In this document: positions 23,276 through 61,946 of the stretch, piece after piece
How the letters are laid out: each line of letters opens with the position of its first letter
Position numbering within the stretch: position 1 is the first letter of the stretch
NCBI RefSeq assembly: GCF_964355755.1
Contig: NC_092670.1
Span: forward strand, 40,102,388 to 40,166,387
DNA from: Antedon mediterranea
Lineage: Eukaryota; Animalia; Echinodermata
DNA length: 64,000 bases
Direction of reading: 5' to 3'
Notes under the pieces: model-generated
Database searches by the model: none
What the model was told of the DNA's origin: nothing
What the model saw: the letters and a program-made list of their open reading frames with translations, nothing else
Translations under genes and position numbers: made by a program

Positions 23276-24301
23276 TCATCTTCGAAATATGTTATTTTGT
23301 TGCGGTGTTTTACGATTACCTTGCATATGCTTTTGAATATCTGGAGTAACTGCTAAACTGTATCTTAAATCAGACAATCCCGCTGGATAAGGCCTTAGAT
23401 CTGAAGTACCATATCTTTGTATGTTGGGATAGCTATCATTCCCGTATGGACGTGACACGGTTACGAACATCAGACGATCAAAAAACTCCACCTGATCGCC
23501 TTGATACTTGAACATGCCTTCTGTCAATTCTCTAACTCCTGTCATGATTTCAAAAGTACTAATTATTTCCATTTGTGGTGGAAACTTTTGATTCAGCATC
23601 GCCAACCACTTCACCTTTGGCATGACGATTGGTAGAACCTCAACATCCCATTTCACGTCAACTCTCTGAGATTGTAAGCATCGTAAAATCTTCAGATACG
23701 GGTCATTACTATCCTCTTTAACGAATCGTTTATTTGCTTCAGTAAAAAAAGGTAAAGTGCTCATTGGTGCTGGTCTGTGAATAATCAACAATTTGCCTTC
23801 TTTTGTCAAAGTCTTCATGATATGTCTAAACGTCTCCTTTGGGTTTGTAAAGTGTTCAAATGCACCGTGTAGGATTATCTTATCAAATGGCGGTTCTTTG
23901 TCTTCTGTCAATCCCTCAGAAAGTTCCCGAAAGTATTGCTCCGCGCCAATATGGTCTATTTTAAATGGAAGTAATCTCTGGTTTGAAGTCTCTTCGTAGA
24001 ATATAACTCCGGGGAATATATTTGCTATTGGTTGTAAAAGACAAAACTTCTCTTTGATTTTTTCGGCATAAGAACCTTTACTACATCCAACATACGCAAA
24101 TCTATCGTGCGTGTCTAGTTCAAGATGTTTGTGAATCTGTTTAAAAAGATTCTCGTCATAGATTGACCCAAAGCTGAACAGATCATCGTCTGCCTTTTCC
24201 GTGACATTTAGTTGACCTTGCCAATGCTCTGAGATCACAGAGAAAGGTTGTGGATACTTGGGAAGAACAAGTTGCTTATCAACAGACTGTGATGTCATCA
24301 T
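23276..24301 (-). CDS. Class I SAM-dependent methyltransferase-like protein, 341 aa, single coding exon
   Basis: Uninterrupted ATG-started ORF. Motif I-like FAYVGCSKG, motif IV-like PFDKIILHGAFEHF and KTLTKEGKLLII (LxPGGxLxI-like). An acceptor TTTTGTAG at ~24322 and a donor GTAAGT at ~25309 suggest an upstream 5'UTR exon. Confidence 0.8.
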   Translation of the reverse strand: MMTSQSVDKQLVLPKYPQPFSVISEHWQGQLNVTEKADDDLFSFGSIYDENLFKQIHKHLELDTHDRFAYVGCSKGSYAEKIKEKFCLLQPIANIFPGVIFYEETSNQRLLPFKIDHIGAEQYFRELSEGLTEDKEPPFDKIILHGAFEHFTNPKETFRHIMKTLTKEGKLLIIHRPAPMSTLPFFTEANKRFVKEDSNDPYLKILRCLQSQRVDVKWDVEVLPIVMPKVKWLAMLNQKFPPQMEIISTFEIMTGVRELTEGMFKYQGDQVEFFDRLMFVTVSRPYGNDSYPNIQRYGTSDLRPYPAGLSDLRYSLAVTPDIQKHMQGNRKTPQQNNIFRR

Positions 24302-25469
24302 GCAGACGATTTGTCAGAACACTACAAAAGGATAACAAAAAATACAATATATGAATTTAGGATTAGGTTAAAAATCTTAACTTTGTACACCTGATCTATA
24401 CTAAACTATTAACGTAAAAAAGATATTATATAATAAAGTTTGTAATATTAGGCCTAACAAAGCATATTAGGTAGAATTGTAACCAGCTGTAATGTTACTA
24501 AATTAAAGTTCTGATGTGCCCATGGACACGATGATGTCATATCACTACCATATTTAGGCATATCACTACCATATTTGAGCACATCACACTTTTTTGTCAA
24601 ACTAGTTTGATAGTGTAGACAGCTACGTTCACACTTAAAGTAAACGGTGCCGTACAATTCTGTATGATTTCCCATTGAATTGTTTCCGTTTTGTTTTATA
24701 TCTCGTTCTGCTTTTTGTTTCGTAATTTCAAACGTGTTCTCTCCATTTCTGGTGGCTTATTGAAATTAAATAAATTTAATTATCTAACAAAGGGTGCCGT
24801 CATCCGTTCCGTGAATCGGAACAAGTCTGAATGTTGTTTCGTTATAGATATTTTTAACTATCAACATAGGCCTACTTGAGGATCGTAATTTCGATATTTG
24901 TTTTTTCCAGGTTTGTCTGTCTAGTACATTTAGAGCGTCAAACCCAAAGGTCATTGTCATGGCAATGTATGCTGCCACCAGGAAGTTTGCAGGGTTCAAA
25001 TTCAATATTTTATTGACTTCACTAAATTATCGAAAATTATCATGGTATAATATTCCATATTAACTTATATTAAACAGTCTATGGAAGAACTTATATGGTT
25101 GATCCGTTATTTTGGTAAGTTTCGTAGATCTATATATTCTTATGGAGTTATATTTCACAAATGGTCCTTAAATAGCCACCATATTCACTAAACACGCTCT
25201 ACCAAGAACTAAAGTAGGCCTTACTTCTTGAACTTAATAATGATAAAACGTAATAAAAAGCATTAAAGCATCATTTATAATTGAACTTTTGATATTTTTT
25301 ACAACTTACCCGTTACAATCGAACCACGTCTTTCCTTTTGGTGTATGTCTGCTGTTTTGTTAAGCACGTTTTATAGGGTGAGTGTACATGCTCACTTAAG
25401 AGACAATGCACACAAAAGTCGCTTATTCGTTGTCTATCATGATCGATAACTGCAAGTATTGTTTACCCC

Positions 25470-39000: not shown

Positions 39001-42000
39001 AATCTCTTTCTACTGCGACTTAATGCTTTACTCGCTGCTGAAGCATAAGATGAGGGCTTCGCTCCAATGTGGTAATATTTTTTATGATAATCCAAAAGAG
39101 AACCCTTTCGGTACGCTTTATCGCATCCAGGAATATCACACTTGTATTTGTTATGATCTAAATCTATGACCATCTCCTTTGGAGCAAGCTCTGTTAAAAA
39201 TAAAATAAATTATAAATAAACTCCACTTATTTTTAATTTCAGTAAGATTAATTTTCTTACACAGTGTGTTTTTGTGTTTTTTAATTATTAATGATACATT
39301 TATTCCAAATCTTTTGACTCCTCTAGCACTGACCTGCACTTTTCCTTTTCTACATATTTTAGCTTCTATTTTAGTTGTTTTTTTAATTATTAATGGTTCC
39401 TGATTCGAATACATATTTTACAGTTTGTTTTGATTAATTAATGACATTTGGAAGGCATTAGCCAGTAGCAATGTTTCTAGATTTGTTATTCAAACTGCTT
39501 TTAAATGTACATATTATCTTCAAATAAAAACAGTACATCTACGACTCTTTTACTGTTTACGAGTAATGTTTAAACGCATAGCAATGAACCAACCAAGAGT
39601 TCTACATTCATTTAATGCTATAATACTTACTTCTGTTAGGATCTCTGAGAAGACCAACTTCTTTGTCCGTTATTACTAAAAATAACAATTTAATATATAT
39701 CCTTTAGTCAATTCAATATATTTTTATTCCTTCAATTAAAAACAAAAGTAACAACAAAAATTTAAAACATGCTGAAGGTCCCAGATGAAAAACATTTTAT
39801 TAATGAACTTTAAACCTTGTACTCGTACCATTTGTGCATATATATATAAATTATATTTTTGAAAATGGTTGGTAATCGGCGCTACATGATGTTGATATTT
39901 TAAACTTACGTGGCTCCCTACTTTTCTTGGCAAGTTGAGACAGTAATGGCGTTATAGGGCTCCCTAAGCTGCTGGAAATAGAGGTGTTCGAACTTGCTGC
40001 ATGGAAAAGGATTGGATAGATTGGATAAATAATATTGGATTTATAAACAAATAAAAAGTAAATCATAATAAAACAATCCAAACAAAGTGAAATAGGGACT
40101 GGCATGGTGTAAGTAATAGTGTAAATAAAAATAGGGACTGGCATGGTGTAAGTAATAGTGTAAATAAAAATAGGGACTGGCATGGTGTAAGTAATAGTGT
40201 AAATAAAAATAGGGACTGGCATGGTGTAATAGTGTAAATAAAAATAGGGACTGGCATGGTGTAATAGTGTAAATAAAAATAGGGACTGGCATGGTGTAAT
40301 AGTGTAAATAAAAATAGGGACTGGCATGGTGTAATAGTGTAAATAAAAATAGGGACTGGCATGGTGTAATAGTGTAAATAAAAATAGGGACTGGCATGGT
40401 GTAATAGTGTAAATAAAACAGATGAAAAAAAACCAAACATCTTGTAAATTGATCAATAAAATTGAAAAAAAAAATGTTTTTCTGATAAAATCATAATTAA
40501 GAGAATAAAAAAATAGAAGCTTATAGACTAGAATTTAATGGGTTTTAAGTTAATTTTAACTGTATATTTTTTTTTTGTATAAGCTAAATCATTTTTTTTT
40601 TCTTTTTAGCAAAGTGATTACTTTATTAAAATTACAAAATAGCCTATTCAAAGTTCTTCAATAAATTGTGTAGAATGATTTATACTGTTATGATGTTTAA
40701 TACTTCAATTGAAGAGTTTCAGGTTTTAAATGAATTTGACAAATTTATTACAAAGACAAAACAATGATTATAAAAACTCTTTATTCAAATCTTTCAATTA
40801 CATATATATTTACAGAAGTTATGGAAACTATAAAGAATTACAGTTACTGGTTTGTATATTAGGGTCCACAAATAAGTTTTAAATATGATAATATAAAAAC
40901 AAATTAAAAAAGTGAGGCAGCACACTGTGATTCAATATTATTTTTAATTTATTTGTTCAACTTCAGGAACAAAACATAAAAATAAAGTTTGAAATATTGA
41001 ATCACAATGGCCTGCATCACATTTATTGGGGTTTGTTTAAAAGTTTATTGTAAGTTCATTCATACAAAAATCTGACTTAAGATTGGCCTGGCTCCAAATT
41101 TGCATTAGCAAACTGCTATAAATAGATTTAACATGTTAGTTGAACATTTCAAAACTAGCTAACATTTGCTTTGCAATTCAAAACAACAAAATCTTTTTAA
41201 TCTTTATCTCTGTAAAATTCAAACTTTTTTTGTAGAATCAATTATTATATTGTATTATAGCAATATATTTGTTTGTTTGCTAAAGAAGGTTGGATGCTAA
41301 AATAATGTTATGTACTTTATGTTGTTGACATTTTCAATGGCAAGAAATTAAATTTGTAATCCTGTTTTTTTCTTTTTTAATCTTCACATGCACATCTGTA
41401 CTGCATTTATGTTACTTTAACATAGAGCAATTCAGTCAAAATATATTGTACCCATGAAAAAAACATTTTTAAAAAAATATTTTTGTTGAATATGCCATTT
41501 TAAATAATAGTTATAAACAATTATTTACCTGAAAAAATGCAATTTAAAGCACAAAACAGTCAAATTGGCTGGAAGTCAATGGGTTTTTCATTGAACAAAA
41601 CCATTTATTTCACTTTGGCAGTGACAACATTTTTGTTAGATATTTTTTTCTACGAAAGTGATTAACTTGATTAAAACTGCGAAATTGCCTATTCTTTTTT
41701 TCATGTAAAAATTTTCTTTTTTCAAAACTAAATTTTTTACTGCAATAACAAATGATTTTAGTTTGTATAAATGTAGAAGTTTATATTCTTACTATTAAAA
41801 AGCTTGCTAAATAATTGCAAAATGTAGTTAATGTAGAACAATTTTGACATGGTTCGTTACAATGAATAAAAAATTAGTCTTTATATGTATGTCGACACTT
41901 TCCATTTATACTTTCCCTAATGTACGACATATCTCTATAAACATCTCCAAACAAAGCCTCAGCTTCTGCTAAAATTGGTTTCAGTCTAACTGGATCAAGA

Positions 42001-45000
42001 GTCTTCTTAATCTTGATAACCCCATTGCTACTACGCCGTGGACCTCCCACAAAGCTAGAATTTTGTAACTCTTGCTTCGTAAAAAGATACCCCATCATCT
42101 TCAAAATGAATGTCTGTCCTGGTTTTGGTCGAGGCTTGCTTGATGAATAACAAGCCAAATACTTTGATTTTGCTACTTCAATACACGCCACATTTTCATT
42201 ACCAATCACAATAAACTCTCCAGGTGAAGACATCTTTTCTCTCACACGTTGCTCTGCTTGTTTCAATTTTGTCTCTTTCAACTGTTTTAACTGTTCCTGA
42301 AGTTGTGGAATTGTCAGATGAGAAGAGGTTCCTGCTATCTGACCACGACCACTAATATGTTCTGTTATAGTAGAAATGTCATTTTCAATTTGATTTCTTC
42401 CAGAAGATGAATGTGAAAGATCGTTTTCATCCATTCTTGATTCTGTTGACGAGTAGAAAAAAGGTCCGCTTACATATTTAGCTTTAAAATTGTTCTTGTG
42501 TTCATTTGTTCCGTCATTTGGCAAAACTTCATTCCCTCTGCTATCTGATAATTTTGAAATAAACATGGGTACAGGTCGAAGTTCAACATCATCCTCCAGA
42601 ACTGAATCATTTCCAGATGGATTTAAACACTGTATACTACTATCATCTTTATCCAGACAGACATCATTCTCAAGAACTCCCGGATCTGGTTTTACTGGCG
42701 TTTCTTCAGGAATCAAAATATAAGCATTTGAAGAACCTGGATGTTCATTAGCTGGAGAACCTGTTGACCTGCTGCAAGATGTGTGAACAGATTGTTTAGT
42801 ATTGTTCCAATTTACTTCCTGCTGACCTGACATGTCACCTTTAATACTGTTGAAATTAGAGTTGTTTTGAGGTAATCGATTCCAGGTATCTGTGCTTCCT
42901 TCGGTTGGGTCAAAATCTTGAGTTATATCAATTTGCGCATGGTCTAATATTGAGTTTACTGGCAGATTAGTTAATTGAGATTGCTGAGATGGTTGATTCC
43001 AGATTGCACTTTCTTCAATTTCTTGATTGGTGTGCTGTTGGAGAATCATTTCATTGTCTTTAATCGATGTGTTTGAAGGATTACACTTTGATACTAAAGC
43101 AGTCATTGTTTTTAACATCTTCTGAAAGTTAGAAAACATCTTTTGTTGGTTCAGTTCAATTCTGCCAAGTCTTCTGTTAACAGTGTCTAATTTCAGAAGT
43201 TGACGTTGAATAAGGTGTTGTCTTCGTTCAATGTTAGCCACACTTGTACCTAGCATATGAACAGATGACAGCGTTCTTTCAACTGTTGTTTCAAAATCAT
43301 TTTCAAAATCAGCGAGAGGAGAGCAACGCAATCTGGAATCTTCATCACTGGTGGTATCAGTATCTTGTTCACAGCCTTTTTGTGTCCTCAAACGATTTGA
43401 TCTTTTGTCTTCTTTATCATTGCTTCTACAAGAAGTGGCCAATAAATTTGCAAATGATTCATTTCCATCCTCAAGAGAGCATTTATAATAATTTCCAAAA
43501 ATGTTGGAAGAAGGTTCTCCATCAAAGGCGGAAGAAGTTTTCTTGAATTGTGTGTCCTTCTTCTTCCTCTTTCTGCAGTTGTCATCGTCATCATAAACAT
43601 CAATCACAGGATTTATGTCTGTGCAGAAAGAGAGCGAATATCAAATGTTAGAGAGCAGTTTATTGTTGAGTTTTCGTATTAGTCTGGTGATCGTCATGCA
43701 GAACATTGATGAATCCATCTCAAATTAAGTCTTCAAAATGCCATGGATGATTCTCCTTTATTAGCCATGTGGATGTTTATTCCATTTCAATTTCCATTTC
43801 AACATCATCTCCATCTCAAATGCCATTCACGGTTCAAAACGATTTAATTTTCTAGAAAAGTACTGTTTCAGCTATTTTTAAATTTTGTTTGTGCTTTTAT
43901 GCTTTTGTTTCTGTTCAAGGGGAAGGGGGATGTAGATAGAGGTGCTTGCCACCTGTTCATCCCTTTCTTTTCGCTATGTTGTGCTATGTGCTTTTTTTAT
44001 TTGTATATCTGTTTGCAGAGTATAATAAATAATAATGTTTTCAATTTCTATTTTATGTAATAAGTGCTACATGTTTTAATGTGATCTATTTTGAATTGAC
44101 TAGTTGTATATATGTGTACATTTTAAAACAATATTAAAGTTAGTTAAAGATGTATTGTCCCTTTGACTAATTCCAAAAAAATGTATAAAAAAAGATTTCG
44201 GAAAAAGCGGGTCATTTTGAAGTATCATAATATTTATTAACTTTCACCAAAAATTAGTCGAAAAAAAAATCATTTAACTGAAATACAGACATTTCTTTTT
44301 TCAAAAAATAACTGACTTCCAGTCAAAGTTTTCGATCAAAACATATCTCATAATGCAACGCGCTTGTTTGGCTCATATGTATGCATAATCATTTAATTTC
44401 TTTGCGATCTGTTTAAAACACCTTCTCAACCGTGAGGAGTTGTAAACAATCCTAATTAGCATCATGCATAATGCATACTCATGGTTTGAAATCTTTGTTT
44501 ACTTTTGCTCGCGACAATTTTTCAGACGAAATGTAATCAAATTAATTTACCTGTTAATTATGTAAACTTCTTGTTTTTGGCTCGAATTTTCGACTTAAAG
44601 TGAATAACTTTAATATTACTTTGATATGGCCAATTTAAATTTAGAATATTTTGACCTTCATTTTTTGTGTTTCAAGTGATAATTCATCTTTAAGTTAAAT
44701 ACTAGTGATTGACACTATATATAGAAAACATCTATGGATGGACAATGTATGATACAGTATTTATTAAAGATACACTGTCTCTAAAGTCTGTCAATTTTGT
44801 AAAAAATGAATGGATGGAATTACATAGTAATGTATTGTAAGTTTTTTCAGTAAAAATATGATACATATTTTTAATATTTTATTTTTTTTTGGTAAATAAT
44901 TATTTACAAAAATATACATTTTCTTCTTTAGACCCAATAAACTTTATTTTTTTTATAAATGATGACAACAACAAAGATGTTTTGCTAATTCTGCATACTA

Positions 45001-48000
45001 GGTCTAGTATACTAGCAATGTCAGTCAATGTAACATTAATTAAAATGTTTTTGTTCAAGTTCATTAAACAAATTTTCCAAATTTTTCACAATATTGGAAA
45101 AACAATGTTAAATAAAATATTTAGTAAAAAAATAATGAAATAAGGAATAAAGAAACGCATTAAAAAGAATAAAAAGATGGAAAAATAATTATTATTTAGG
45201 AAAATCGGTTCCTGATCACCATAGTGTGGCTAAAACATTATTTTTACAACAACAAACTGAAATACATACCTGGGCTTGAAGTATGTGACCTAGGAGAGAT
45301 TGATTGACCCTACAAAAGAAAAAAACAAACATTTTTTAATACTACACTTATAATGTATAATCAAATCCATGTGACCAACAATCGTCCAATCAAATGACAG
45401 GAATTTATTCAGGTGTTAAATAATAATGGATAATCAATGGATTAAACAGTGAACAGTAGCTTTATTTATTTGAAGCTTTCAATTTGCGATGACCTAGTAC
45501 TGTATCTTCAATAAAATCCTAGTTTTTTCGCAAAAACAAAAGCTTCTTACTTTTAAGAGAGTTGAACGACAGTTAAAATTGTAATAATCTAAAAAGAAGT
45601 TAAAATTGTCTTATTTATTAATAAATGTTAGCTTCTCTTTGCATGTGCGATCACCTTTTTTACTTTTGGTACTTAATTCAGTTACCTTCATAAAACCTTG
45701 TCATTTATCCGATTTCTGTGCATATTTAGTTTTATTTTAAAATATTTATTATTTAAATATTCTGTATTGTTTAATTGATTAACTTTTACTACCTAAATAA
45801 TAAATTGATCATTTTATATTTAAAATAACAATATAATGCTTATTTTATGTGCGATGCTCTACAATGGCTCTGTCTTTTACTTTCTGTCTTCTGTACCACG
45901 ATATTTGTTTGGCAAAAAGTATCAATATAAAATGTTGAAAGGTCATTTTTTAACTATTCTTTTGATAGCCTCTTTGTTGTGATGTGCAATTTCTAAGTTG
46001 CAACATATGATAATCATCATCACGACTGACAAAACATTGATTGACCTGATCTAGGTTGGTCACCGCTCGTCGCAAACCGAAACCTCCCTAACATTGTTTT
46101 GTACTTTTTGCTGTTGTCAAGAATTTCTTATAGTAATTTAACCTGCATTTACTAAAGTCCTAAAAATGACAATAAAATACATACACTGGGTTTATAGCAT
46201 CAACTTTATTTATTAAAGCAAATTCAAAGATTTTTAAAAATATATAGTTTTCCAAACAAATATAATTGTCATGCAAAAAAATGCTCTATTTATAACACAA
46301 TTCTTTCTGTGAAAGACTGATGTTTTGTAAATTAATAATTAAACAAAAGATAAACTCTCAATAGAGCATTTATACAGTTGAAACTAATTACATGTATGAC
46401 ACTTCTGCTCTTGAAATGAAACAAAGAAATGGACTAATAATGTATTATCTTTATAAAAAACATGTGAAACAGAAACTACATTCAAGCATTATGAGACTAA
46501 CAATTCAGCTTTAAAACAAAAATCAAACTACAAGTTTCGATCTCTAATTGTCTGAGAAAGTGAAATAACAGGTTTAAATTGTTTGCTTCGACACAACGAT
46601 AAATATTAATATTATACTAATAAAAGTAATTACGTGTTCTAAAGTGAAAACAGAAATACTTCAAAGTCAAAAAAGCTTTAACAGACCTTGTAATAGTTTT
46701 TACACAGACTATAAGAGCTTAGTGAAATTTTTTAAAAGATCATCCAACGGTGTAATAATTACTAATATAAAACAACATTAGTTAGGTCTATAGTATTTTT
46801 TTAAGCGTTATTTTTATATTATGTAATTAATAATAATATAAGAAATGTTAAACATTGAATTTATAACCTATACACTATTGCTCTACCTCTGTATCGAGCA
46901 CTCTTATTCATGATCTGGATCAAGTCTACCATGCAGATTAACCTATACACTATTGCTCTACCTATGTATCGAGCACTCTTATTCATGATCTGGATCAAGT
47001 CTACAACGCAGATTAACCTATACACTATACATTTATTATATTTTTCTATGAACATTGAGTATGGTTTTAATACTGTACTTGACTACCACTAAACAGTAGA
47101 ATGAAGTTTACTAGAATTATTCAAATCTGGGGCGGATCCAGTTTTATTCAATATTAATTTCTATAAATTTATTAGGAAAAGGAAAATAAGAATTCCAATG
47201 TAAAAATAATTATACTGTACATATTTTATGTTTATGTTAAAATTCAATAAACAATATCTGGCTTAATAATACTAAATGTTTTTAGAAGGTCACCATTCTG
47301 TAACGGCGTCGGACCCCTACCTAGGTGCAAATTAGCAAATGTTAGGTTAAACTCTACGTTCACCACTGATAATCTCTTGCAGAATATCATCAGTAAGTAG
47401 ATCACCGTCAAAACTGGGAAACTCCTTCTTTGCTTGCAACATTATGACCTTCAAACGGAACGGATCTAAAGCATTTTTAACAGTTTGCCTTTGAGACTTC
47501 CACAAATCGTCTCCACTTCCTGATAACTCATCGTTTATGAATAAGATTGATAGAAGTCTTTTGATAAAGAAGGTTACAGACTTGCTCTTACTCTGTATGT
47601 CTTGATAAATGTTCTTTGGAATCTCCATTTTGTAAGGATGACTGCCAATGACAACTGTATGACCTTTTCTTTGTTCTGATGATTCTTTAGAAGTTGTTCC
47701 TAAATTATAAGCTTCCTGATTGTAAGCACCTCGCATCTGATGTTTGTTGGACACACGTGGTGTGACTGTGCATCTGGTTTCTGTTAGCTTTCTTTGTTTG
47801 GAGTTCGATTCATTTTGACTTTGTTCTTTCAAAGAGCTAATCCTCTTCCTCCATGTTGCCTCCGTTGGAAGAACATTCATTCCTATCCTGTTGGAATTGG
47901 TTCGATTGAGGTTGTCGCAATTTTTTGAAGATGGAATGGCAAGTTCTTTCTTTCCATCCTTCTTACTAAGATGGCTCCTTGATTGAGATTCATTATTTCT

Positions 48001-51000
48001 CTGCTCGGTAGAAGCATTTGAACGATTCTTCTTTGGTTCCTCTTCATCATCAGACATTTCAAGCTGAATGTCCATTTCAGTGTCTTTCATTTTTGAAGAC
48101 ACATGACCAGTACATGAGGTTTTCTTTTTTGATACTGACGACGTGACAGTTTGCAACTCACTCAATCTTTTATCAGTAACGATTGGAAGTTTATTCAGAG
48201 ACACTATGGGCATTTTTGAAAGCCTAGGTAAGAGAAGCACATCTGGTTGGTGTTCAGGCAGTTTAGAAGACCCTGAGGGAAGTTTAATTCTTGATTTAAT
48301 GAAGTTTATATTTTCTCTAGCTTGTGAATTTTTCTGGTATGGGCCAAGTTTGTAAGATGTTCTCTTGGATTGTTTTTTACCAGTGACGATTAACCTACCA
48401 GTAGAAACACAATTGCTTTTATTATAAGATGAAGAACGCCTTAGTTGTACCAATTTGGAAGTAACTTTAGAAGGATGACCTGACATGACCTGACCTTGTC
48501 TTAGAGAATTTTGTGGAGCAACAGAATTGACCAATGACACATCAGATTTTCTTGCTTCAGATTGCCAGCTTGAAGGAGGTCTTAAAACGGCAGCAATGAC
48601 ATCTCTGCTTTCTTTTTTAATGGCTTCCTTAACCTCATCCACCATCGATGTAATTTTGTCAACAACAACTGCATTACTATCAAATTGTTCCAGTTGTTTT
48701 TGTGTTTTTTCCAATACATCATCACAAATAGATTGTATGTCACTCTTGATATCCAACCGAATCTCATGTCGAAGTTTCCTTAACTGGGTTTCAATTGAGC
48801 GGAACTTGGTGTCGACATACTGATGAAGGCATTTGCAACAGGTATTGTGTCGTTGAGAAGGAATGGGTCGTCTAATTGGTGGACCTCCCAAACTGGAAGG
48901 GTATAAAAGTCGATGATCTGGAGAATTTGTCCGTGTATCAGAAATATCTGTAGAAGTTTTTGGAAAATTGTTTCTCTTAGTCTGGTGTAGATCATCCCTC
49001 AATTTTGAATGTGAAAATACCGCTGCGTTCTTGTCACTGTTTTGGCCGTTTCTTGTAGTAGGGACGGAGTAACTATTTTTCACATGACTATTGTCTTTCT
49101 CCAAAGTGGAAATTGACTTATGATTGTAATATGACCTGATTCTTGAACTTTGACCTGGAATCCTCAACATTACATCTGTTGCCGATTTGGTTCCCGAGTT
49201 AAGAGTTCTGTCAAAATGCTTTTTGTTTCCATCAGTTGAATTCTTATGCATTAATCTGTAACTTGGTTTCCGTGAAATGTAATACATTAAATCCTCTTCA
49301 TTATAATGATGCCATCTAAGATTATGACCACGAATTTGAGAAGTATTAAACGACATCAACTGAATATCACTTTGAAAAGATGTTGCATGACTGGGTAATG
49401 AATTTGATTGAGAAGCTTTGTCAGAGTCATTATCAGAAGTTCTACAAGAAGTTTGAGGTTTTTGACTGTTGCTCGAATCATTATCGTCAGAGTCTTCCAA
49501 ATCTAAATTTATAGGCATCATAAAATCGTCATCTAGTTCACTATCTTGGTCAGTGATGTCCGAATATAGTCCTCTATTGCGGTCATCACTGTTGGACGAG
49601 CAACCATCCCAATATGCCTGCACGTCCGCTCTCTCCTACAAGTTGAAGAAATTCGAAGAGTGAGAGTGCAGGCTTGAGATTTTTTTTTTTTAAGCAAAAG
49701 CATGAATTTCTATAGGCTGTATATATAATGTCTGCAAAAGAAAATCATCTGCAAAAAAAATGTTGCTAAACTAAAAAAATACAAGCTGCATAAATGAAAA
49801 AAAAAAATTTCCAAATTGCTGATAATCAATGATATATGTACGAATGATATGATATTAACATGATTTTAATCCATGGTGTAAAAGTAAAAGAGATGCAATA
49901 AAAACAAAAAGCAATCCGAGCGGCATCCAGAATCGTGAAACAAGATTCTGTAAATAAAACTTGATATCTATATGTACATACCCTGCGTGTTGCATGTGCA
50001 AAGAAATGTGTGCTTGCTGCTGTACTCTATTATTTTACCTATACCGTAGTTCCCCGGGTATAATCCCACCCTCCTTGTACGTGAAATTTGCCCGAATTTG
50101 GGAGGTGGGACTATACCCGGGGATTTCCCACTGCATGAATTGAAAATGACGATATTTCTTCTAGCTACGATCTAAAGCTATATTCCGATGCATGTAGGCT
50201 AGGCCTAGCAATTAGACGGCCAGGCCATCTAGACCTAGGCGGCCTAATTGGTCTTACCTGTGCTATGCCTACCGTTATAGATTTTCCCCAGATTTCTACT
50301 TAAAAAATACCCTAAAATGTGATCTAGGCCTAGCTTCCTAAATCGACATGAACTCGATCATACGAGTTCTCCGTCTCCCGGCGGTTCACCCACGCTCGAG
50401 CTCAGTGTAAATCGCATGTTGTTGCATGTGACACAAACTACTGCACAAGCCGGTCGGTATAGAGGGCGGTGTTTTTTTTACGGTAATCAAGCATGCAGTA
50501 GTGTAAACAACAAGAAAGAATGTACACGGCGAAAGGATGTACAGAACGCGACGATCGGGGCATGCTAGCCTTAAGGTTGTATTCAACTTAACAATGTTTG
50601 ATGAGTTTTAAGTCAGCCAAATTCAGAGAAATTACTCTATTCTTTGGTGAGAATTTCTTTAAAAATATTGACGTCGGCCTAGCTAGCTACAGTAGGCCTA
50701 GGCCCACCTCTGGCCTTATATTAAATTATACACTGGGACTTTGCTCGGGGATATGCTTGCGTGCGAAGGTAATCGTAAAGTCGGGGGTGGGATTATACCC
50801 GAGGTGGGATTATACCCGAGGAACTACGGTATATATATATTTTTCTCTACAATTTAGTTTGATTCAATGCATTCTATTCATACATGACATGACATGAGTT
50901 AGCATTATATATTTGGTTATTTAGGCTTTTCATATCAAATTTTTATACATTTTTTTAAAAAATATATATATTTTTTTTACATTTTGTTTTTGTTCTGTGT

Positions 51001-54000
51001 TTTATTTGTTTTCTATGTGTTATATGACAATACTGATACGGTGAGAGTCAATACGGTGAGAGTCAATGACAATACTGTAACATACTGTGAGAGTCAATAC
51101 GGTGAGAGTCAATGACAATACTGTAACATACGGTGAGAGTCAATACGGTGAGAGTCAATACGGTGAGAGTCAATACGGTGAGAGTCAATAAAGAATTATA
51201 TTCTATGCACTATTATGTAAATCTAAAGAAAAAATATAGCAACTAATGTAAATAATTTAGATAATTGTTTTAATTATTAAACTCATGCAACTGACCTTTA
51301 ACCTTGGTGACATACTTTCATGTCGGATGCGCTTTGATTGGATCGGTGTTGAACTGTTTCCAGATAAACGTCTTTTTGGTGCTGATGGGCCATCGCCTAA
51401 AAAAAAATAATTGATGGGTAAATACTTATAGAAAGAATAACAATTTTCCAATAATATTAATACAATAAAACGTCTAAAATATACCCAAGAAATCAAGAGG
51501 TATTTTTGTAAATTGACAAACTTGTAAATTGTGAACGTAATTTTTATCTTTTTGTTGTATGATAGCAAAGTACTCTACAATACTACACTTCAGGTTCAAT
51601 CTAGGCATTGGAGATCATCAATAAACAACCTAACAACCCAACGAAAGTACCAGTGTGAGTCAATGAAGTTTGCACCAATGTTTTTACTAAATTGTGAAAT
51701 ATTATATATACATTTACATTTTACCAAAATGAACTAAAAACATATGTAGCCAGTAAACCTCCATGAACTAGCAACTAAGGATTCTTGTTGTAAAGTGACA
51801 TGTAGTTTCAGGCACCTTTTTCTATGCTGCTAAGTCCAATGTGTACAATTTCCCAAAAAAATACCAGTAATACATTTTGAGCTACAACATTTAACTGTCA
51901 GTGTGGAATAGGTGGTTTTAGTGTGGAACAATCAAAATGATAGTTACTTTCAAGCGATTGACTTCGTTCCACTTTTCGGCGGCCATGACTCTTAGACCAG
52001 TCTTTGTCGTACAAGCCTTCACTCGTCTTTTTTGAAAAAATAATAGTAGAAGAAGTTCTTGATATTTTTACTGTATGTCAAACTCTCTTATGTATATAAA
52101 GTATTGATATACCCAAATATGGTAGTGATATGCCCAAATATGGTAGTGATATGACATCATCATGTCTATATATGGGCACATCATTTTTTTGTCACATAAA
52201 ATTTGATAGTGTAGAGAGAGCTTTAGTTTCTTACCTTATCCTGTTGGAGGGACGGAGGTAAATCACGAATGTTAATAGCTTGCACAGTTTTCTTTATACC
52301 GTCGTAGAAAAGAACTTGATAAGAACCGCTACTATTCGCTGAAATGATTTCTGCCGGATAAAAACGACAGTCGGTCCATCGTGCTAACACATGCTCACCG
52401 GATCTCTACAATATTTTAAAATAAATAAACATTATTTTAACTGTAATTTCTAAAACTATGTTTAAATGTAAATTTTGTAAAATGAAATGAACTGAATTCA
52501 CTACAAAGTGAAGTGCAGTAAAACCTCTCAATAAAATTAACTAACTGTACACATAAATATTTAAGGGGAAGTATAATGTATTTTTTAATTTATACAAAAA
52601 CAGGAAGTTCCCACATACAGCACACGGGCGAAAATGTAATAAAGATCAAAATATAAAATGTACAAAAAAAAGAAAATATATATATTTTTTTTAACATTTT
52701 GTTTTTGTTATATGTGTTTTATTTGTTTTCTTTGTGTTATATGCCAATACTGTAACATACGGTGAGAGTCAATAAAGAATTGTAATCTATGCACTATTAG
52801 GCCAAAAAAAAAAAATAGTTTGTTTGCTGTCATCCGCCGCCCCTAATTTCGCCAAAAATTTGGGGCGGAAATAAGAAAAAGTTTTTTTTTTACGTTGAGG
52901 GCGCTTTAAAATTTTTTTTTTTTTAATGATTTTTTTTGGCCGAAAAGGTGTAAAAATCGAGTGTGCGAGGATGAAACAATAAAAATAATAACGTAGCGTA
53001 TATTTCGTTGTATAATCGCACTTTTGACACGCAAATTTAACCTCTAAATTAAGGGTGCGTCTTATACACCGAACATAAATGCCTCAACACACAGATATCG
53101 CCACCTCGTTGGCTAGGCCTGGGCTTTTTAACCGATTCACCACGATAAGCGCTTAAAGCGCTCAAAAGGTTAAAAGTCAAGGTCATTGTAAACAAATTTT
53201 CAACAAAAAAAAAGTAAATCGAATTTACATGCGCAGTTTGCTGTGCATGAATCGTAACAACAAATTATACAAAATACTCACAACTTTTTTTTTAAAAATA
53301 TGCTTCTAAATATATAAAAACAATTGTTGAAGTTAGTTTGAAAATAAAATTCGAAAATATAACCGTTTTTCGAAGCACGCTGTTCGAAACGCGACAGGCG
53401 CGTTGAATGAATCTAGGCCTAGACATACAACGTAAAATCGTCTAAAATCCATCTTTATTTCTAATAATCACTATTTTGAAGCTTGTATACAATAAATGTA
53501 TAATAAATAAAGATTATGTATCAGTTACAGTGTCTAAATCGTCATATTTCCATGTAAAAATGTGATTTTTCTACCGGAGAAAAGTCGTGAAGATGTCCTC
53601 ACAAGGGCCGCGCCATATTGTTTACCTTTGATTGTAATATGAACCCTGACATGTCAGATGCATTATGGGCATGAAATATTTGTTCAAACTCTGCGCAAAG
53701 GTCAGTTTATTGAAGCATAACTTTTGACAAACATTTTGATACCAAACTTGTTTTAATTTCATAAGTTTTCGACGCATTTTCGTCAAATTTTCTGCAAGCT
53801 ACACGTCTAAAACAGCGGACTAAGCTCCCGAGGGATGCCGGTGCGCGTGGGAATCGCGAATTCCAAGTCGCTTTCGGGATGTTTTTTTTAACATTCCCGG
53901 TGAACAAACAGCGGCGAGGACGCTCTCGGGGCGGCTCCCGATAGGCCTAGGCCCCATATGGTCATCGTCGGATGAGTCAGTCTACTAATTTCTTCATAAT

Positions 54001-55200
54001 TTCGAAACCGGTCATTCATAATGGTCAAGTTTGGTCTTATTTTGAAGAGAAGAAATAGGTTCTGATGAAGAGATGAGTTTTATTATGAAATATTTATTAA
54101 TTTTTGTGCATTTGGTAGTCAAAGATAAATTACAAATTTTTAATAATTTTCCTAAAATATTTCTAAAATTTGCATAATCCATACTCCGCCAAAATAAGTT
54201 GTAACACAAATTTGATAACATATTTGGAAATAAAATGTCCTTTGCATTATTTTTGTTTTTAATTTTTTTAATGTCTGTGTTTAGAAAAAAAGTTAGGGTT
54301 AATTATATGACATATGCTTTTTGGGTCCCAGGGGAGCAAAATAAACTTAGGGGTCAATGGGTTAAGGTAAGGCCTATTAGTATTACTAAAGTCTAAAGAG
54401 TTGCCTAGCCTAGCTACAGTGTACTAGCGTAACAGCAACCTGCTAGTTTTCAAGGCATTTTAGCGTGATTTTTTCATTATGGAGCTGTTTTTTAGGCGCT
54501 CCGATAAAATTTCATTTGAAAACGACGTTTACGATTGGAATAGTATTATAGTTATACGCACGACCGTCGTACCCCCAGCGCGAGCGAGCCCTTCTTGGCA
54601 ACCACATTGTTTACACAGTATTCGACTAGTATATTCTCCAGTTGATTATAGCATAGACCTCCTAGCGTACACACTTCAGGATACATAGATACTAATCGAA
54701 TACGATTGTCCGTGAAAACGTACGTGCGCCTCTCGATAAAAGGATCGAGCGAGGCTAGCCCACACACACGTGCGGTCATGCACTCGATGTTGCGGGTGCG
54801 AAACTCATTCATAACAAGTTAGAAAGAACTGACGGAATGGGGGACTTCCCTTCTTGTTGAGGCTAATGGGCGCGGCCGTCTTATACATCGACGATATACA
54901 AAATACCGATATTTTACTCTCAGTTAGGGGTCGGGTGCGTCTTATTATACACAGGTGCGACTTATACACCGAAATATATGGTACACTAACTTCTAAAAAT
55001 TAAAATATTTAATTAGGCCTGCTAACAACGACCTACTGTGTAGTAGTAGGCCTAGCCTAGGCTAGTTTAGACACGGGGCCTAACGTGCCCAAAACAGAAT
55101 TAAAGTGTGAAACAAATTATGAATAGATGTTTGAGCTCGTTGTTTTATTCAGTGTGTTTTGTTACTCTCAAATTCGCGAGCAATTAACAGAGAAATTAAC

Positions 55201-55240
<40 letters not shown>

Positions 55241-57149
55241 TTTTTCCACCCGCCCCCCCTACCAAAAAAAAAAACTTGACAGCAAACAAACAATTTTTTT
55301 TTTTAGGCCTTATATGTAAATCTAAAGAAAAAATAAAGCAACTAACATAAATAATTTAGATAATTGACTGAAGGCAAATGACTGAAAAAATGACAATGCT
55401 GTCTATATATATATAGAAATAAATGATAAAGACGCTAGTAAATTACCAACTGAACATTTTGTTGCACTACAGGCTGTTTCATGAGTATGAATGAAATCTT
55501 CAGGTGCTTGGCTCTCAATGATTAGATTAAACAAAGTTTTCTATTATATACCCAATATCATTTTAGCATTGTTATTATCTTACCCGTAACGAACCATCAC
55601 TGCAACTGTCTCTGCGATTCGAGTGTCTTGGTGCTGGGCGTAGGCGCTCACTTTGGAAATCAACCCATTCATCATAACGTGCATTCCACCCTTCAAAGTG
55701 TATCTGCACTTCTTCTGCATCCCAGTCAACTCGTACGATCTTAGCAGGATACCTAGAAGGCAATGTCAAGGTCAGGTCAAACATATAAACAGTAAATTAA
55801 ACAACAAACATGATTTGCTTGGGTTTTATTAATAGCATGCAAGGTTGTATTTGACTGTAAATAAGGTATGAAAGGTGAAACAATTTTGTTCCCATTGTTT
55901 TTACAACCAATCTAGCAATAGGTGATGAAAATTAAAGACTAACAAATTTATTACTGCACAGTTAGGCTGTGGCTGTCATCGTCCAAAAAATATACTGATA
56001 ACCACATAAAACTCACTATAAAGTAGGAAGCCTTATTCTGCCATTTTTTCCTTACTGTACAATGTATTTATTATTACAATTATTATTACACTTTACACAT
56101 ACCACTGTACATAGGTAGAGCATTTACTATAAAATTCCCAGAATGGCCGACGAAAAAAAAAACCAGCTGTCAGTTTAAAGGATGCTAACTAAGTTTGTTA
56201 CACATCAGTAAATATAAGAAATGTCTTACCAATTGTTTAGGTAATCCATGGCTTCAACCTTAAAACCTGGTTCAAAAGAAAATCCTGTTCGCACATTTCG
56301 AGTCTTTGGCTTAGTACCAATATGACCAGCGTCTCCTTGTTCAAGCATCTTGCTTGGATCTTTAACCTTTGACCTCCCTAATTGTTCACTACTTGTTTCA
56401 GAGCATTCACTTGGAGCAGCACTCTCTTGTTTTTCTTCATCTTTATTTGTTTCTATGCTGATTTCCTCTTTATTCTTGTTAGATTCAGTCACAGTATTGA
56501 CAGCAACAATTCTATTATCAGAGGAGTCTTTTCCTTGGGGTTGCTCTTGGTGTTTCTCTTGAGGTTGCTCTTGAGGTTGTACTTGAGGTTGCTCTTGAGG
56601 TTGCTTTTGAGGTTGCTCTTGAGGTTGCTCTTGAGGTTGTATGTGAGGTTGTATGTGAGGTTGTATGTGAGGTTGTATGTGAGGTTGCTCTTGAGGTTGT
56701 ACGTGAGGTTGCTCTTGAGGTTTCTTTTGAGTAGCCTCAATGTCCATGGCTGCAGTCTCTTTCGACATTACTGCAATTGTCGCATCTTCCTTTTTGATTG
56801 TCACATTATCAACATCTTGTTGTTCTTCCCTCAAAGCAATTTGTCTGGAAATTTTGCTGCTGGACAATTTTAAAGGAATACGACTTGATACCTCACCTCT
56901 ACCAGTCATTATGGACGATGGATCCACTAACTTGGAACCCACAGACTGGAGATCCTTTAAGGAAGAGGATGGTAGAATAGGAGAAGGATCCACAGAGGAT
57001 GGCTCTGAAGCACTAATAGAAACAGGTTTTTTTTCAATTTTTCCAACTTCTGGTTGTTGGTTGATCTCTCCAGACAACTTGATCTGTACAACATTGGCCT
57101 CAGTTGGAGGTGGAACCGATGCTGTGTTGTCTTCTTTTGTCTCCTCCAT
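27052..57149 (-). CDS. PHF20: PHF20/PHF20L1-family chromatin reader (NSL complex subunit; Tudor-Tudor-C2H2-PHD), 16 coding exons, ~1563 aa
   Basis: Phase-consistent GT-AG exons: 56230-57149, 55584-55752, 52235-52405, 51948-52026, 51296-51396, 45270-45309, 39910-39996, 39631-39675, 38993-39190, 37876-38808, 37256-37449, 30560-30659, 30040-30238, 28765-29899, 28287-28470, 27052-27188 (total 4692 nt). Tudor1 GFSFEPGFKVEAMDYLNNWYPAKIVRVDWDAEEVQIHFEGWNARYDEW; Tudor2 VLARWTDCRFYPAEI...YQVLFYDG; C2H2 [64 protein letters not shown]...YICCFC; PHF20-type C-terminal motifs AAHKLGSDI, CQLNLLEHV and LMSDLKKV. The small low-complexity exons are less certain. Confidence 0.92.
27410..28045. repeat. 31-bp purine-rich minisatellite (~20 copies) in the last PHF20 intron
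   Basis: Unit aagaaaaatggctaagaattgaagagattgg repeated tandemly. Confidence 0.95.
30700..30952. repeat. ~60-bp tandem repeat, 4 copies
   Basis: agtccactg(c/t)ttaag...caagtaaagtaa...gatgtcaaaagtaaatgttc recurs at ~30702, 30763, 30825 and 30890. Confidence 0.8.
31205..32013 (-). pseudogene. Pseudogenised paralog of the nested class A GPCRs
   Basis: ATG at 32013 (MDFNISEQTW). There is a 1-nt deletion in TM1 (GGGCTATTG vs GGCCTGATTG), a GGA>TGA stop after VADSL and an early TAG at 31541. It retains AEISSFNLAFLSIERYLAIFKPHWFKNKYKEKH and an NPF remnant at ~31260. Confidence 0.85.
32631..33491 (-). CDS. Intronless class A (rhodopsin-like) GPCR, 286 aa, nested in a PHF20 intron
   Basis: Seven hydrophobic segments; TM1 GLIAN, TM2 NQSVAD, TM3 ISIERYLAI, TM6 INWFPFF, TM7 VNPFLY. 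Confidence 0.92.
   Translation of the reverse strand: MGLNITEETWILYKIGCGVAAIGLIANVVVLCVILKLSSLRKSTRLLVFNQSVADSLGCLTFFIIFLLFDINLDLFCVMLSVLLMIAEISSFNLAVISIERYLAIFKPHWFKNKYKEKHAYIVIFCMWPVGICVHPQMIFLKEGDLFAFYCGTKEGYEVLSYISLPLSFLVFLFTTCTIIFVCLSIFYKLRKQQRLVSTQLASSTTPSLHLKTLKVFFVISSVYIINWFPFFVLFVIYRCTSNDFGFQVVVLCLIFFLTSFTVNPFLYLIFMPQFLLHLRKLFRLI
34409..35538. repeat. ~565-bp tandem duplication of a GPCR 3' end and downstream flank
   Basis: 34409-34972 matches 34973-35538 (duplicate MEIYILEYKRNL ORFs at 34530 and 35094). Both copies end in ttacgcaagtgg. Confidence 0.9.
35507..36367 (-). CDS. Intronless class A GPCR, 286 aa, tandem paralog of 32631-33491
   Basis: Same length and motifs (ISIERYLAIFKP, INWFPFF, VNPFLY). 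The N-terminus MGLNITEETWILYKIGCGVA is identical. Confidence 0.92.
   Translation of the reverse strand: MGLNITEETWILYKIGCGVATIGLIANVVVLCVILKLSSFHKSTRLLIFNQSVTDSLGCFTFLIQCLLFDINLDLFCVMLSVLLMFAEISSFNLAVISIERYLAIFKPHWFKNKYKEKHACIVIFCMWPVGIFVHPDKLFFKEGDQFAVCCGTKEGYKIFPYINVLLSFLVFSFTICTIFFVYSSIFYKLRKQRRLVSTQPASSTTPSLHLKTLKVFFAISSAYIINWFPFFVIVLIYHFTSNDFDFQVVVFSLIFLISSFIVNPFLYTIFMPQFLLHLRKLFCAN
36875..36935 (+). mobile_element. tRNA-derived SINE head or tRNA-like relic
   Basis: A-box-like TGGCTTAGTGG (~36879) and B-box-like GTTCGAGTTC (36924) at Pol III spacing. No convincing cloverleaf. Confidence 0.4.
40090..40418. repeat. 35/39-bp minisatellite, 9 copies
   Basis: Unit aaatagggactggcatggtgtaa(gtaa)tagtgtaaataa. 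Confidence 0.95.
41874..43618 (-). CDS. BEN-domain exon B (coiled coil + BEN); probable alternative terminal exon of PHF20
   Basis: 1.7-kb open frame ending in the BEN-like FILKMMGYLFTKQELQNSSFVGG...KKTLDPVRLKPILAEAEALF...IRESINGKCR. The listed ORF starts at GTG, not ATG. Acceptor CTCTCTTTCTGCACAG| at 43618 is phase 1, matching PHF20 exon 45270-45309. Confidence 0.85.
44148..44689. mobile_element. TTAA-flanked non-autonomous DNA element (Kolobok-like termini)
   Basis: TTAA-AGATGTATTGTCCCT at the left end and AGTGATAATTCATCT-TTAA at the right end form imperfect TIRs. Confidence 0.45.
46865..47030. repeat. ~75-bp tandem duplication
   Basis: aacctatacactattgctctacct(c/a)tgtatcgagcactcttattcatgatctggatcaagtctac occurs twice, with a partial third copy. 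Confidence 0.85.
47347..49635 (-). CDS. BEN-domain exon A (coiled coil + BEN); probable alternative terminal exon of PHF20
   Basis: 2.3-kb open frame ending in the BEN-like VTFFIKRLLSILFINDELSGS...KNALDPFRLKVIMLQAKKEFP. The acceptor TTTCTTCAACTTGTAG|GAG at 49635 is phase 0, and its TAG is an in-frame stop. This matches PHF20 exon 51296-51396. Confidence 0.8.
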   Translation of the reverse strand, partial: ERADVQAYWDGCSSNSDDRNRGLYSDITDQDSELDDDFMMPINLDLEDSDDNDSSNSQKPQTSCRTSDNDSDKASQSNSLPSHATSFQSDIQLMSFNTSQIRGHNLRWHHYNEEDLMYYISRKPSYRLMHKNSTDGNKKHFDRTLNSGTKSATDVMLRIPGQSSRIRSYYNHKSISTLEKDNSHVKNSYSVPTTRNGQNSDKNAAVFSHSKLRDDLHQTKRNNFPKTSTDISDTRTNSPDHRLLYPSSLGGPPIRRPIPSQRHNTCCKCLHQYVDTKFRSIETQLRKLRHEIRLDIKSDIQSICDDVLEKTQKQLEQFDSNAVVVDKITSMVDEVKEAIKKESRDVIAAVLRPPSSWQSEARKSDVSLVNSVAPQNSLRQGQVMSGHPSKVTSKLVQLRRSSSYNKSNCVSTGRLIVTGKKQSKRTSYKLGPYQKNSQARENINFIKSRIKLPSGSSKLPEHQPDVLLLPRLSKMPIVSLNKLPIVTDKRLSELQTVTSSVSKKKTSCTGHVSSKMKDTEMDIQLEMSDDEEEPKKNRSNASTEQRNNESQSRSHLSKKDGKKELAIPSSKNCDNLNRTNSNRIGMNVLPTEATWRKRISSLKEQSQNESNSKQRKLTETRCTVTPRVSNKHQMRGAYNQEAYNLGTTSKESSEQRKGHTVVIGSHPYKMEIPKNIYQDIQSKSKSVTFFIKRLLSILFINDELSGSGDDLWKSQRQTVKNALDPFRLKVIMLQAKKEFPSFDGDLLTDDILQEIISGERRV
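50044..50829. mobile_element. Tc1/mariner-pogo-type MITE with TA target duplication
   Basis: TA-CCGTAGTTCCCCGGGTATAATCCCACC ... GGTGGGATTATACCCGAGGAACTACGG-TA. Confidence 0.85.
51036..51190. repeat. 15-bp tandem repeat (tacggtgagagtcaa) inside a duplicated intronic segment
   Basis: About 8 copies here. The paralogous segment at 52670-52799 has a single copy. Confidence 0.85.
52800..55309. mobile_element. Composite nested DNA transposons: outer element with GGCC termini and TTA flanks, containing a pogo-like element (~52998-54981) and a TTAA piggyBac-like element (53132-54361)
   Basis: Outer TIRs ggccaaaaaaaaaaaatagtttgtttgctgtca and tgacagcaaacaaacaattttttttttaggcc with TTA on both sides. 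Middle TIRs cgtatatttcgttgtataatcgcac and gtgcgacttatacaccgaaatatatg. Inner TTAA-CCGATTCACC ... GGTCAATGGG-TTAA. Confidence 0.7.
56535..56725 (-). repeat. Coding 12-bp tandem repeat (QPQE/QPHI) in PHF20 exon 1
   Basis: gaggttgctctt and gaggttgtatgt units; protein QPQEQPHVQPQEQPHIQPHI... Confidence 0.9.
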
Positions 57150-60768: not shown

Positions 60769-60923
60769 TGAATCGTTCGCGAACTTTCTATTTAGTATCT
60801 GTCAAGAAGTGTCAAGAAGAGAAGAAGAGGATCGCGTATAGACAACAACTGCATAAAATACTGTTATAAAATATATTGTCTGTTGTTAATTTATTATAGT
60901 TATATTGTGTAATAATTCTGAAG

Positions 60924-61946
60924 ATGGCCAAGAGAGAATATGAAGCACATTCAGGTGATAATTTATACAAAAAGCTAAAAAGCAATGACGACGATATCGA
61001 CCTAGGCCTACTAGGCCTACTAGGCGTAGGCCTAGGCCACCACCGGTCAGATGTTGTAGAGCTGACGCCGCAGAAGCCGAGTGATAAAATAGAATGCGGA
61101 GAGTGTGTTACTACTTTGGAAATCAAGTATGAGGTGGATGAGAATACAAAGATATTAAATATTACGATTACGAAATGCAAGGCACACGCTCTTGGTTATA
61201 TCCTACAGCTGTTGGATGATGTACTGCGAGAAGATCCAGACATCTTGTTGGACAAAAAGGGAGTGTCACTGTCAGCAGACAAGAAGAAAGTTGTTGAAGA
61301 CTTTAAAAGGTTACCCCCAGATGGCAAGAAATTATTTGCAAGACTTTACACGAGGAAGCAGGGATGGATTAAGGTTGATGAACTACATTACAACGAAATT
61401 ATTGACCTGGCTGATGCTATTCAGAAGTTAGCTGCATCTGGATTCATTGATGATGACCTGCAAAACCCTGAACAGATTTTGAAACTATTAACCCTAAAAG
61501 AACTGAAAGCATTTGCAAATGAGAAGAAGATAAAGCTGAAAGGTACAAAGAAGGAGGAACTAGTACAGCAAATGCTGGTAAACAGATTCCAAACAGAAAT
61601 ATTCAACAAAGCGAAGGAAAATATTGGTAGGTGCATTCAACTTGGATCGAATCAAAGAGAAGTGTTCCGTGAATTACTGGATAGATACGGCTGGAAAGAA
61701 TTGAACAGTCGAGGAATTTACAAACACAAAGATTGTCCGGTGAAAATGATGTTTGCATATTATAAGCCTAATCATCATGAGAATTTTTATCAAACCACCA
61801 CCAAAGAAATAACCACTACTACCAGCGCAGCTGCCCACAGCTTGTCTTGTCCAGAGTGTCGTACAAAAATAATGGTTTCTGTGATACTGGGAAATGACGA
61901 TGAGCTGACCAATCAACAGGAGGCTGGTGGTGGGGACAAGTGCTGA
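60924..61946 (+). CDS. Intronless truncated FAN1-like protein (winged-helix + SAP region only), 340 aa
   Basis: FKRLPPDGKKLFARLYTRKQGWIKVDELHYNEIIDLADAIQKLAASGF...ILKLLTLKELKAFA...KKEELVQQML...KAKENIGRCIQL...REVFRELL follows the FAN1 WH/SAP pattern. No TPR or VRR-NUC domain. AATAAA at ~62094. Confidence 0.8.
   Translation: MAKREYEAHSGDNLYKKLKSNDDDIDLGLLGLLGVGLGHHRSDVVELTPQKPSDKIECGECVTTLEIKYEVDENTKILNITITKCKAHALGYILQLLDDVLREDPDILLDKKGVSLSADKKKVVEDFKRLPPDGKKLFARLYTRKQGWIKVDELHYNEIIDLADAIQKLAASGFIDDDLQNPEQILKLLTLKELKAFANEKKIKLKGTKKEELVQQMLVNRFQTEIFNKAKENIGRCIQLGSNQREVFRELLDRYGWKELNSRGIYKHKDCPVKMMFAYYKPNHHENFYQTTTKEITTTTSAAAHSLSCPECRTKIMVSVILGNDDELTNQQEAGGGDKC

Follow-up and report, generated by a model that had tools for sequence, protein, structure and literature searches.

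A PHF20 locus in the crinoid Antedon mediterranea with two candidate BEN-encoding last exons

Can a single PHF20 gene end its protein in more than one way? The question is raised by a stretch of 64,000 nucleotides of Antedon mediterranea (contig NC_092670.1, positions 40,102,388 to 40,166,387; hereafter the window), whose minus strand carries an orthologue of PHF20/PHF20L1. An initial annotation had pointed to two long BEN-like open reading frames in consecutive introns on the strand of the gene, both lacking an ATG at the 5' end, having an in-frame stop just upstream and starting at an AG acceptor, and had read them as swapped C-termini. All of these features were reproduced. We call the two reading frames exon A and exon B and propose that the locus probably gives rise to three proteins that have both Tudor domains in common, namely one of the type Tudor-Tudor-C2H2-PHD and two of the type Tudor-Tudor-coiled-coil-BEN. 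The features are collected in Table 1.

Table 1. Coding exons, candidate last exons and predicted 3' features of the PHF20 locus (positions within the window)
Feature	Position	Strand	Remarks
First coding exon, ATG at 57149	56230..57149	-	N-terminal low-complexity region; Tudor 1 begins here
Tudor 1 (MBT-like) exon	55584..55752	-	PDB PHF20L1 21ee, E 8e-11; Pfam MBT
Tudor 2 exon	52235..52405	-	PDB PHF20L1 21ed, E 2e-14, ungapped alignment
Linker exon, 79 nt	51948..52026	-	Phase 0 to 1, required for frame
Last exon common to all three predicted forms	51296..51396	-	Ends SPRLK, phase-0 donor
Exon A, 762 codons	47347..49635	-	Orthologous to C-terminus of XP_033124914.1
Exon A, predicted coiled coil	near residues 270-350		Simple heptad heuristic
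Exon A, BEN domain	about 47350-47667	-	
AATAAA hexamers 3' of exon A	47173, 47148, 47037 (within 47032..47173)	-	Candidate poly(A) signals
Micro-exon, 40 nt	45270..45309	-	Phase 0 to 1, common to B and canonical form
Exon B, 580 codons after split codon	41874..43618	-	
Exon B, predicted coiled coil	near residues 119-177		Simple heptad heuristic
Exon B, BEN domain	about 41877-42206	-	
Candidate 3' UTR and AATAAA hexamers after exon B	41609, 41049, 41027 (within 41022..41609)	-	
Canonical exons	39996-39910, 39675-39631	-	
Canonical exon	39190-38993	-	C2H2 finger
Canonical exon	38808-37876	-	
Canonical exon	37449-37256	-	First half of PHD
Canonical exon	30659-30560	-	Second half of PHD
Canonical exons	30238-30040, 29899-28765, 28470-28287	-	
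Canonical exon	27188-27052	-	Conserved C-terminal helical region and stop

The canonical coding sequence is made up of 16 exons that join via AG acceptors and GT donors. Its product of 1563 aa shares 766 identical positions with isoform X1 of the Anneissia japonica gene LOC117123170. The first coding exon aligns with the N-terminus of Anneissia isoforms X1 and X2, the PRSH motif of the micro-exon is found in X1 too, and the C-terminal region is conserved between X1 and the canonical form. For both Tudor exons there are matches to PHF20L1 and PHF20 domains of known structure, with L3MBTL3 chains scoring slightly above PHF20L1 for Tudor 1 (PDB, E 2e-12). Tudor 2 retains the aromatic cage residues W, Y and F with the spacing that they have in PHF20L1, where they are numbered W97, Y103 and F120 (PMC8867114). 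The two halves of the PHD finger match the Pfam family PHD_5 with 39.5 bits (cut-off 27). The C2H2 finger gave a weak zf-C2H2 match in Pfam (E 0.03), but reached 106 bits against Anneissia X1. Judged by its sequence, the canonical form is a PHF20/PHF20L1 protein with tandem Tudor, Tudor 2 cage, C2H2 finger and PHD finger.

Exon A begins at position 49635 with GAG, directly behind the acceptor ttcttcaacttgtag, whose TAG doubles as the in-frame stop. The first Met is codon 39, and 38 open codons before an ATG are within chance (P about 0.10). When the phase-0 donor at 51296 is joined to exon A, a protein of 1242 aa with a single terminal stop results. When the BEN region of A was used as query, a single one of 153 candidates came back with E<=10. 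This protein of 1261 aa, XP_033124914.1, is a computational model from Anneissia japonica that RefSeq lists as 'uncharacterized protein LOC117123170 isoform X2'; the gene's isoform X1 corresponds to the canonical PHF20-like form. Over 433 residues X1 and X2 do not differ, and they diverge directly after SPRLK, which is the residue at the Antedon donor 51296. Full-length X2, when scanned against Pfam, revealed Tudor-type and BEN families only, without BTB; both Tudor domains are present and the BEN match is weak (17.4 bits).

Exon A is conserved in frame with its Anneissia counterpart over about 760 codons, and this conservation starts at the junction. Before the first Met 13 of 38 residues are identical, over the first 55 residues 25, and over the next stretch 59 of 205. 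Identity amounts to 46 of 90 residues in the predicted coiled coil and to 67 of 112 in the BEN region, where the two BEN domains are 63% identical. In a tree, A and Anneissia X2 form one clade (100/99). The Anneissia gene models combine a common N-terminus with an alternative 3' exon at the very junction that is predicted here for A. We conclude that A is very probably a PHF20 isoform that arises through an alternative last exon, and that this isoform is already in RefSeq as an uncharacterised model. A homologue search with the whole reading frame of A, using words from its first 500 residues only, returned nothing and missed the X2 orthologue.

Pfam recognised the two C-termini to a different extent. 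The domain cut out of B scores 24.9 bits against BEN (PF10523; gathering cut-off 23.2), while the whole reading frame reaches 21.7 bits and stays under this cut-off. A remains below it (12.7 bits, E 0.15). Further comparisons place A in the same fold. All ten of the best Atlas matches with an assigned family share BEN or its clan (top score 0.92). A leave-out profile built from 61 other BEN-like matches, excluding A, B and the Anneissia protein, gave 47.8 bits for A and 83.4 bits for B; the 61 sequences were gathered with a related query and are not fully independent. The alignment profile of A detects human BEND6 with E 5e-7. A structure model of the A domain, predicted from a 32-row alignment, has a pLDDT of 77.6. 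In a fold search with this model (method VIA) the top five rows are all BEN structures, led by BANP (Z 10.3, rmsd 3.3, 95 aligned) and followed by NACC1 (Z 9.0), Bsg25A (Z 8.5), BEND3 (Z 7.5) and BEND6 (Z 6.6); the sixth row has Z 4.8. Foldseek likewise put BEN structures in the first 15 places among the matches listed, none of them at E<=0.001. A single-sequence model of A (pLDDT 44.6) led to meaningless fold matches and was discarded. The C-terminus of A is therefore, by its modelled fold and by the leave-out profile, a BEN domain despite its sub-threshold Pfam score, and the C-terminus of B is a BEN domain by sequence. The expected Pfam match came about for B, as a cut domain, and failed for A.

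Are the two BEN exons copies of each other? Within the BEN domain A and B share about 30-34% identity, without a significant match elsewhere, and blastn detected no DNA similarity between the two regions. In the tree, calculated without 3 of the 61 BEN-only sequences that were shorter than 85 aa, B does not group with A, and none of the 200 bootstrap trees unites them. Placing A and B in one clade gives a p-AU of 0.18; a single origin of both is hence neither shown nor rejected.

Exon B starts with AC at position 43618, behind the acceptor ctctctttctgcacag, and its stop lies at 41874-41876. An in-frame stop is found 8 codons upstream and the first Met is codon 121. The 120 open codons that precede this ATG are hardly expected from base composition (P about 1e-4), and the other two frames hold 3 and 20 stops. 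With so long an open stretch ahead of its first ATG, B needs an upstream exon. The nearest upstream donor, at 45270, matches the phase of the B acceptor (phase 1), which by itself has a chance of 1 in 3, and the resulting protein has 1074 aa and a single terminal stop. The splice phases and the three product lengths given by the initial annotation are thereby confirmed, that of the canonical form with the exons 52026-51948 and 39996-39910 included. Exon B also contains the basic stretch RKRKKK, which we take to be of the NLS-like motif type. Among the 13 variants listed in B, 5 are synonymous and 8 non-synonymous, a ratio that indicates only weak constraint; none introduces a stop.

Evidence from relatives is different for B. 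No B-type isoform and no close B orthologue was found among 150 protein library matches, with 48 bits as the best B-domain score, and a homologue search with the whole reading frame of B, using words from its first 500 residues only, returned nothing, which carries little weight given that the like search with A missed X2. The retrieved matches include both Anneissia X1 and X2. A might hence be a true last exon of PHF20 and B a separate nested gene, for which the intron 45269-43619 would contain an unrecognised promoter and a small first exon. The separation of B from A in the tree would agree with this, as would a contig on B that extends 24 nt upstream of the acceptor. However, the library holds one representative per 50% cluster, so that a B isoform could be hidden inside such a cluster, or could lack annotation in Anneissia. 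No candidate first exon was noticed in a non-systematic look at the intron, and the acceptor phase of B fits the nearest upstream donor in the same arrangement as in A. We regard a nested B gene as unlikely and consider it probable that B, like A, is a PHF20 isoform with an alternative last exon. The notion of a swapped C-terminus has thus gained independent support for A from Anneissia X2, at the same residue, and is still inferred for B.

Contigs of one sequencing run (X1), guessed to be RNA with no record stating so, cover in pieces 46999-49689 and 41022-43642, that is both reading frames and DNA past their stops. They reach down to 46999 past A, and one contig covers 41022-41551 past exon B. 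Upstream of the acceptors they extend into the intron, by 54 nt at A (to 49689) and by 24 nt at B (to 43642). These intron letters fit unspliced or separately initiated RNA. Logan, the source of the contigs, discards single-copy k-mers and simplifies the graph (10.1101/2024.07.30.605881), and the intron extensions can therefore be pre-mRNA. A further contig of 2169 nt starts in exon 1 but has only 839 nt on it, and the depth figure found there is seen again in exon 51296-51396, as would be expected of a spliced transcript. From bin depths this contig seemingly does not enter A or B, an observation that says nothing on absence. No A, B or canonical junction was found among the joints listed, which are 15 of 187 and all lie in repeats; contigs drop rare forms. 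In the first PHF20 exon, a contig of the run also omits 60 nt (56596-56655) of the QPQEQP repeat; either an allele of different length or a collapse during assembly is the probable cause.

The intron letters at both acceptors would also be expected if both reading frames were stand-alone nested BEN genes, with A starting from Met39/40 and Anneissia X2 being an annotation join. Stand-alone coiled-coil-BEN genes are indeed the norm, as 61 of the 62 BEN-bearing library matches have no Tudor domain. However, the residues of A ahead of its first ATG are conserved across species and in frame with the donor, B has its 120 open codons without ATG, and the phase rule and the RefSeq model independently arrive at the same junction residue. 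We consider two nested genes very unlikely. Alternatively, the BEN exons might have their own promoters, and trans-splicing might attach them to the Tudor exons in the manner of Drosophila mod(mdg4), where the 3' exons are described to have independent promoters (PMC13490949). Short intron-derived 5' extensions on both contigs are what an independently started 3' transcript should show, but they stem from one run and could be pre-mRNA. Moreover, both exons lie downstream of their donor on the same strand at less than 2 kb, for which cis-splicing is enough. Trans-splicing therefore appears more improbable still.

Cis-splicing is the route that we favor. Donor 51296 would be joined to acceptor 49635 for A, or donor 45270 to acceptor 43618 for B, and each BEN splice would be followed by intronic polyadenylation. 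The BEN forms would thereby drop the C2H2 finger, the PHD finger and the C-terminus and keep both Tudor domains. In human cells the C-terminus of PHF20 is reported to be needed for NSL binding and Tudor 2 to be required for chromatin binding (PMC8867114). Since the C-terminus binds NSL, the BEN forms would probably act outside this complex, by analogy, and would lose NSL/MOF docking rather than retarget NSL. BEN domains are described to recognise short DNA motifs (PMC11514455), and the BEN domain of Insensitive to depend on upstream multimerising regions (PMC6317261). Together with the heptad stretches in A and B, this leads us to predict readers that multimerise via their coiled coil and bind chromatin at sites offering both a methyl-lysine mark and a DNA motif. 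As for their origin, coiled-coil-BEN genes may have been captured as exons in PHF20 introns, A before the split of the two crinoid lineages. A wider reading, which we put forward tentatively and with a slight leaning towards doubt, is that crinoid PHF20 became a cassette locus by taking up two different BEN genes as alternative last exons, as a chromatin-reader counterpart of mod(mdg4). It would yield NSL-independent, sequence-specific methyl-lysine readers, their share being controlled during development or regeneration by a switch in splicing and polyadenylation, and might still be gaining exons, B having the look of a younger or lineage-limited one.

How far does this arrangement extend? 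The 150 library matches comprise 1 protein with Tudor and BEN domains (Anneissia X2), 61 with BEN only and 88 without BEN. Pfam detected PF10523 in 22 of the 61 BEN-only proteins and a Tudor family in none. PHF20-like matches from sea star, sea urchin, hemichordate, tunicate, mussel and sea anemone, all of them cluster representatives, had no BEN domain. Judged from these representatives, the data suggest that the BEN tail is limited to crinoids. An Atlas search with Anneissia X2 gave no usable match, none of 161 pattern matches in viral contigs was confirmed, and metagenome contigs contained 2 distant Tudor loci with 40-41% identity. BEN-like reading frames are described as widespread, including in viruses (PMC11514455), and the introns around A and B are repeat-rich, so that decaying mobile-element remnants outside any functional transcript have to be considered. 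Such remnants would hardly account for the 760 codons and the BEN identity that A shares with Anneissia, nor for the lack of stops among the listed B variants, and no transposase family was matched to either reading frame in Pfam. We find this explanation barely credible.

Among the PHF20-like relatives, Nematostella vectensis LOC5508662 (P0040, 2036 aa) has a PHF20-type N-terminal tandem Tudor followed by about 1900 residues in which neither C2H2 nor PHD nor BEN was matched; this may be a further case of a swapped tail. Three further PHF20-like proteins (P0003-P0005) show four Tudor-2-type stretches, and one of them (P0005, Ciona intestinalis zf(c2h2)-137) has a weak match to a Tc5 transposase HTH (E 4e-4). 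The annotated protein LOC106806813 (P0147) of Priapulus caudatus combines a nucleosome assembly protein (NAP) domain with a BEN domain that belongs to the same subfamily.

Terminal-exon swapping is known from other loci, and one mod(mdg4) isoform carries a BEN domain. The Anneissia gene LOC117123170 is the closest case, being the same gene with the same branch after SPRLK and the same Tudor-Tudor-coiled-coil-BEN(A) product. It differs in that X2 is an automatic model without a BEN label in its precomputed domains, and no counterpart of B was found. Human PHF20 and PHF20L1 share the tandem Tudor, C2H2 and PHD domains. Short isoforms of human PHF20L1 without the PHD are described (PMC3961655; PMC12292733), among them b and c, which retain the N-terminal readers and for which no additional domain is mentioned (PMC3961655), whereas here a folded domain of DNA-binding type would be added. 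In mod(mdg4) a common N-terminal module is likewise combined with alternative 3' exons for distinct C-terminal domains; its common part is a BTB domain, it comprises 31 exons and it uses trans-splicing (PMC13490949), in contrast to a methyl-lysine reader, two alternative exons and likely cis-splicing in Antedon. Vertebrate LCOR/PALI1 resembles the locus as a chromatin gene with a choice of large 3' exon, this exon once having been thought a separate gene, C10orf12, but PALI1 gains a PRC2-binding region and is described without Tudor or BEN (PMC12223765). By analogy, the PHF20-BEN locus works like mod(mdg4) and LCOR/PALI1 and is a member of neither. BANP, NACC1, BEND6 and Insensitive/Bsg25A match the tail of A in fold and profile, and in Insensitive a coiled coil lies upstream of a C-terminal BEN domain (PMC6317261), as predicted here; none of them is described with a Tudor domain or as isoform of a Tudor gene in the source text at hand. 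A full-text literature search, with most subscription papers outside its scope, found no published description of PHF20-BEN isoforms. The proposed BEN tails on PHF20 would be a new, seemingly crinoid-limited form of such swapping.

If the proposed isoforms are true, a conserved housekeeping chromatin gene would supply an NSL subunit and, in addition, transcription-factor-like proteins in which a methyl-lysine reader is coupled to a BEN domain of DNA-binding type. It would be a clear example of a new domain architecture obtained by exon capture with the old function retained. Intronless coiled-coil-BEN 'genes' in invertebrate genomes would then be worth checking for whether they are last exons of the genes that host them.

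The window holds further genes. Two intact single-exon genes for rhodopsin-type GPCRs (286 aa, 83% identical; 36367-35507 and 33491-32631, minus strand) and a third, frameshifted copy (about 32013-31231, minus strand) lie within the PHF20 intron that interrupts the PHD finger, on the strand of PHF20 itself. Head-to-head with PHF20 lies a single-exon reading frame (60900-61943, plus strand) that matches the FAN1 HTH (E 6e-10) and weakly SAP; Pfam gave no nuclease-domain match for it. Positions 1-20113 of the minus strand contain pieces of what we take, from the translation, to be at least two organic-anion-transporter-like genes, and a single-exon methyltransferase-like reading frame is located at 23279-24313 on the same strand.
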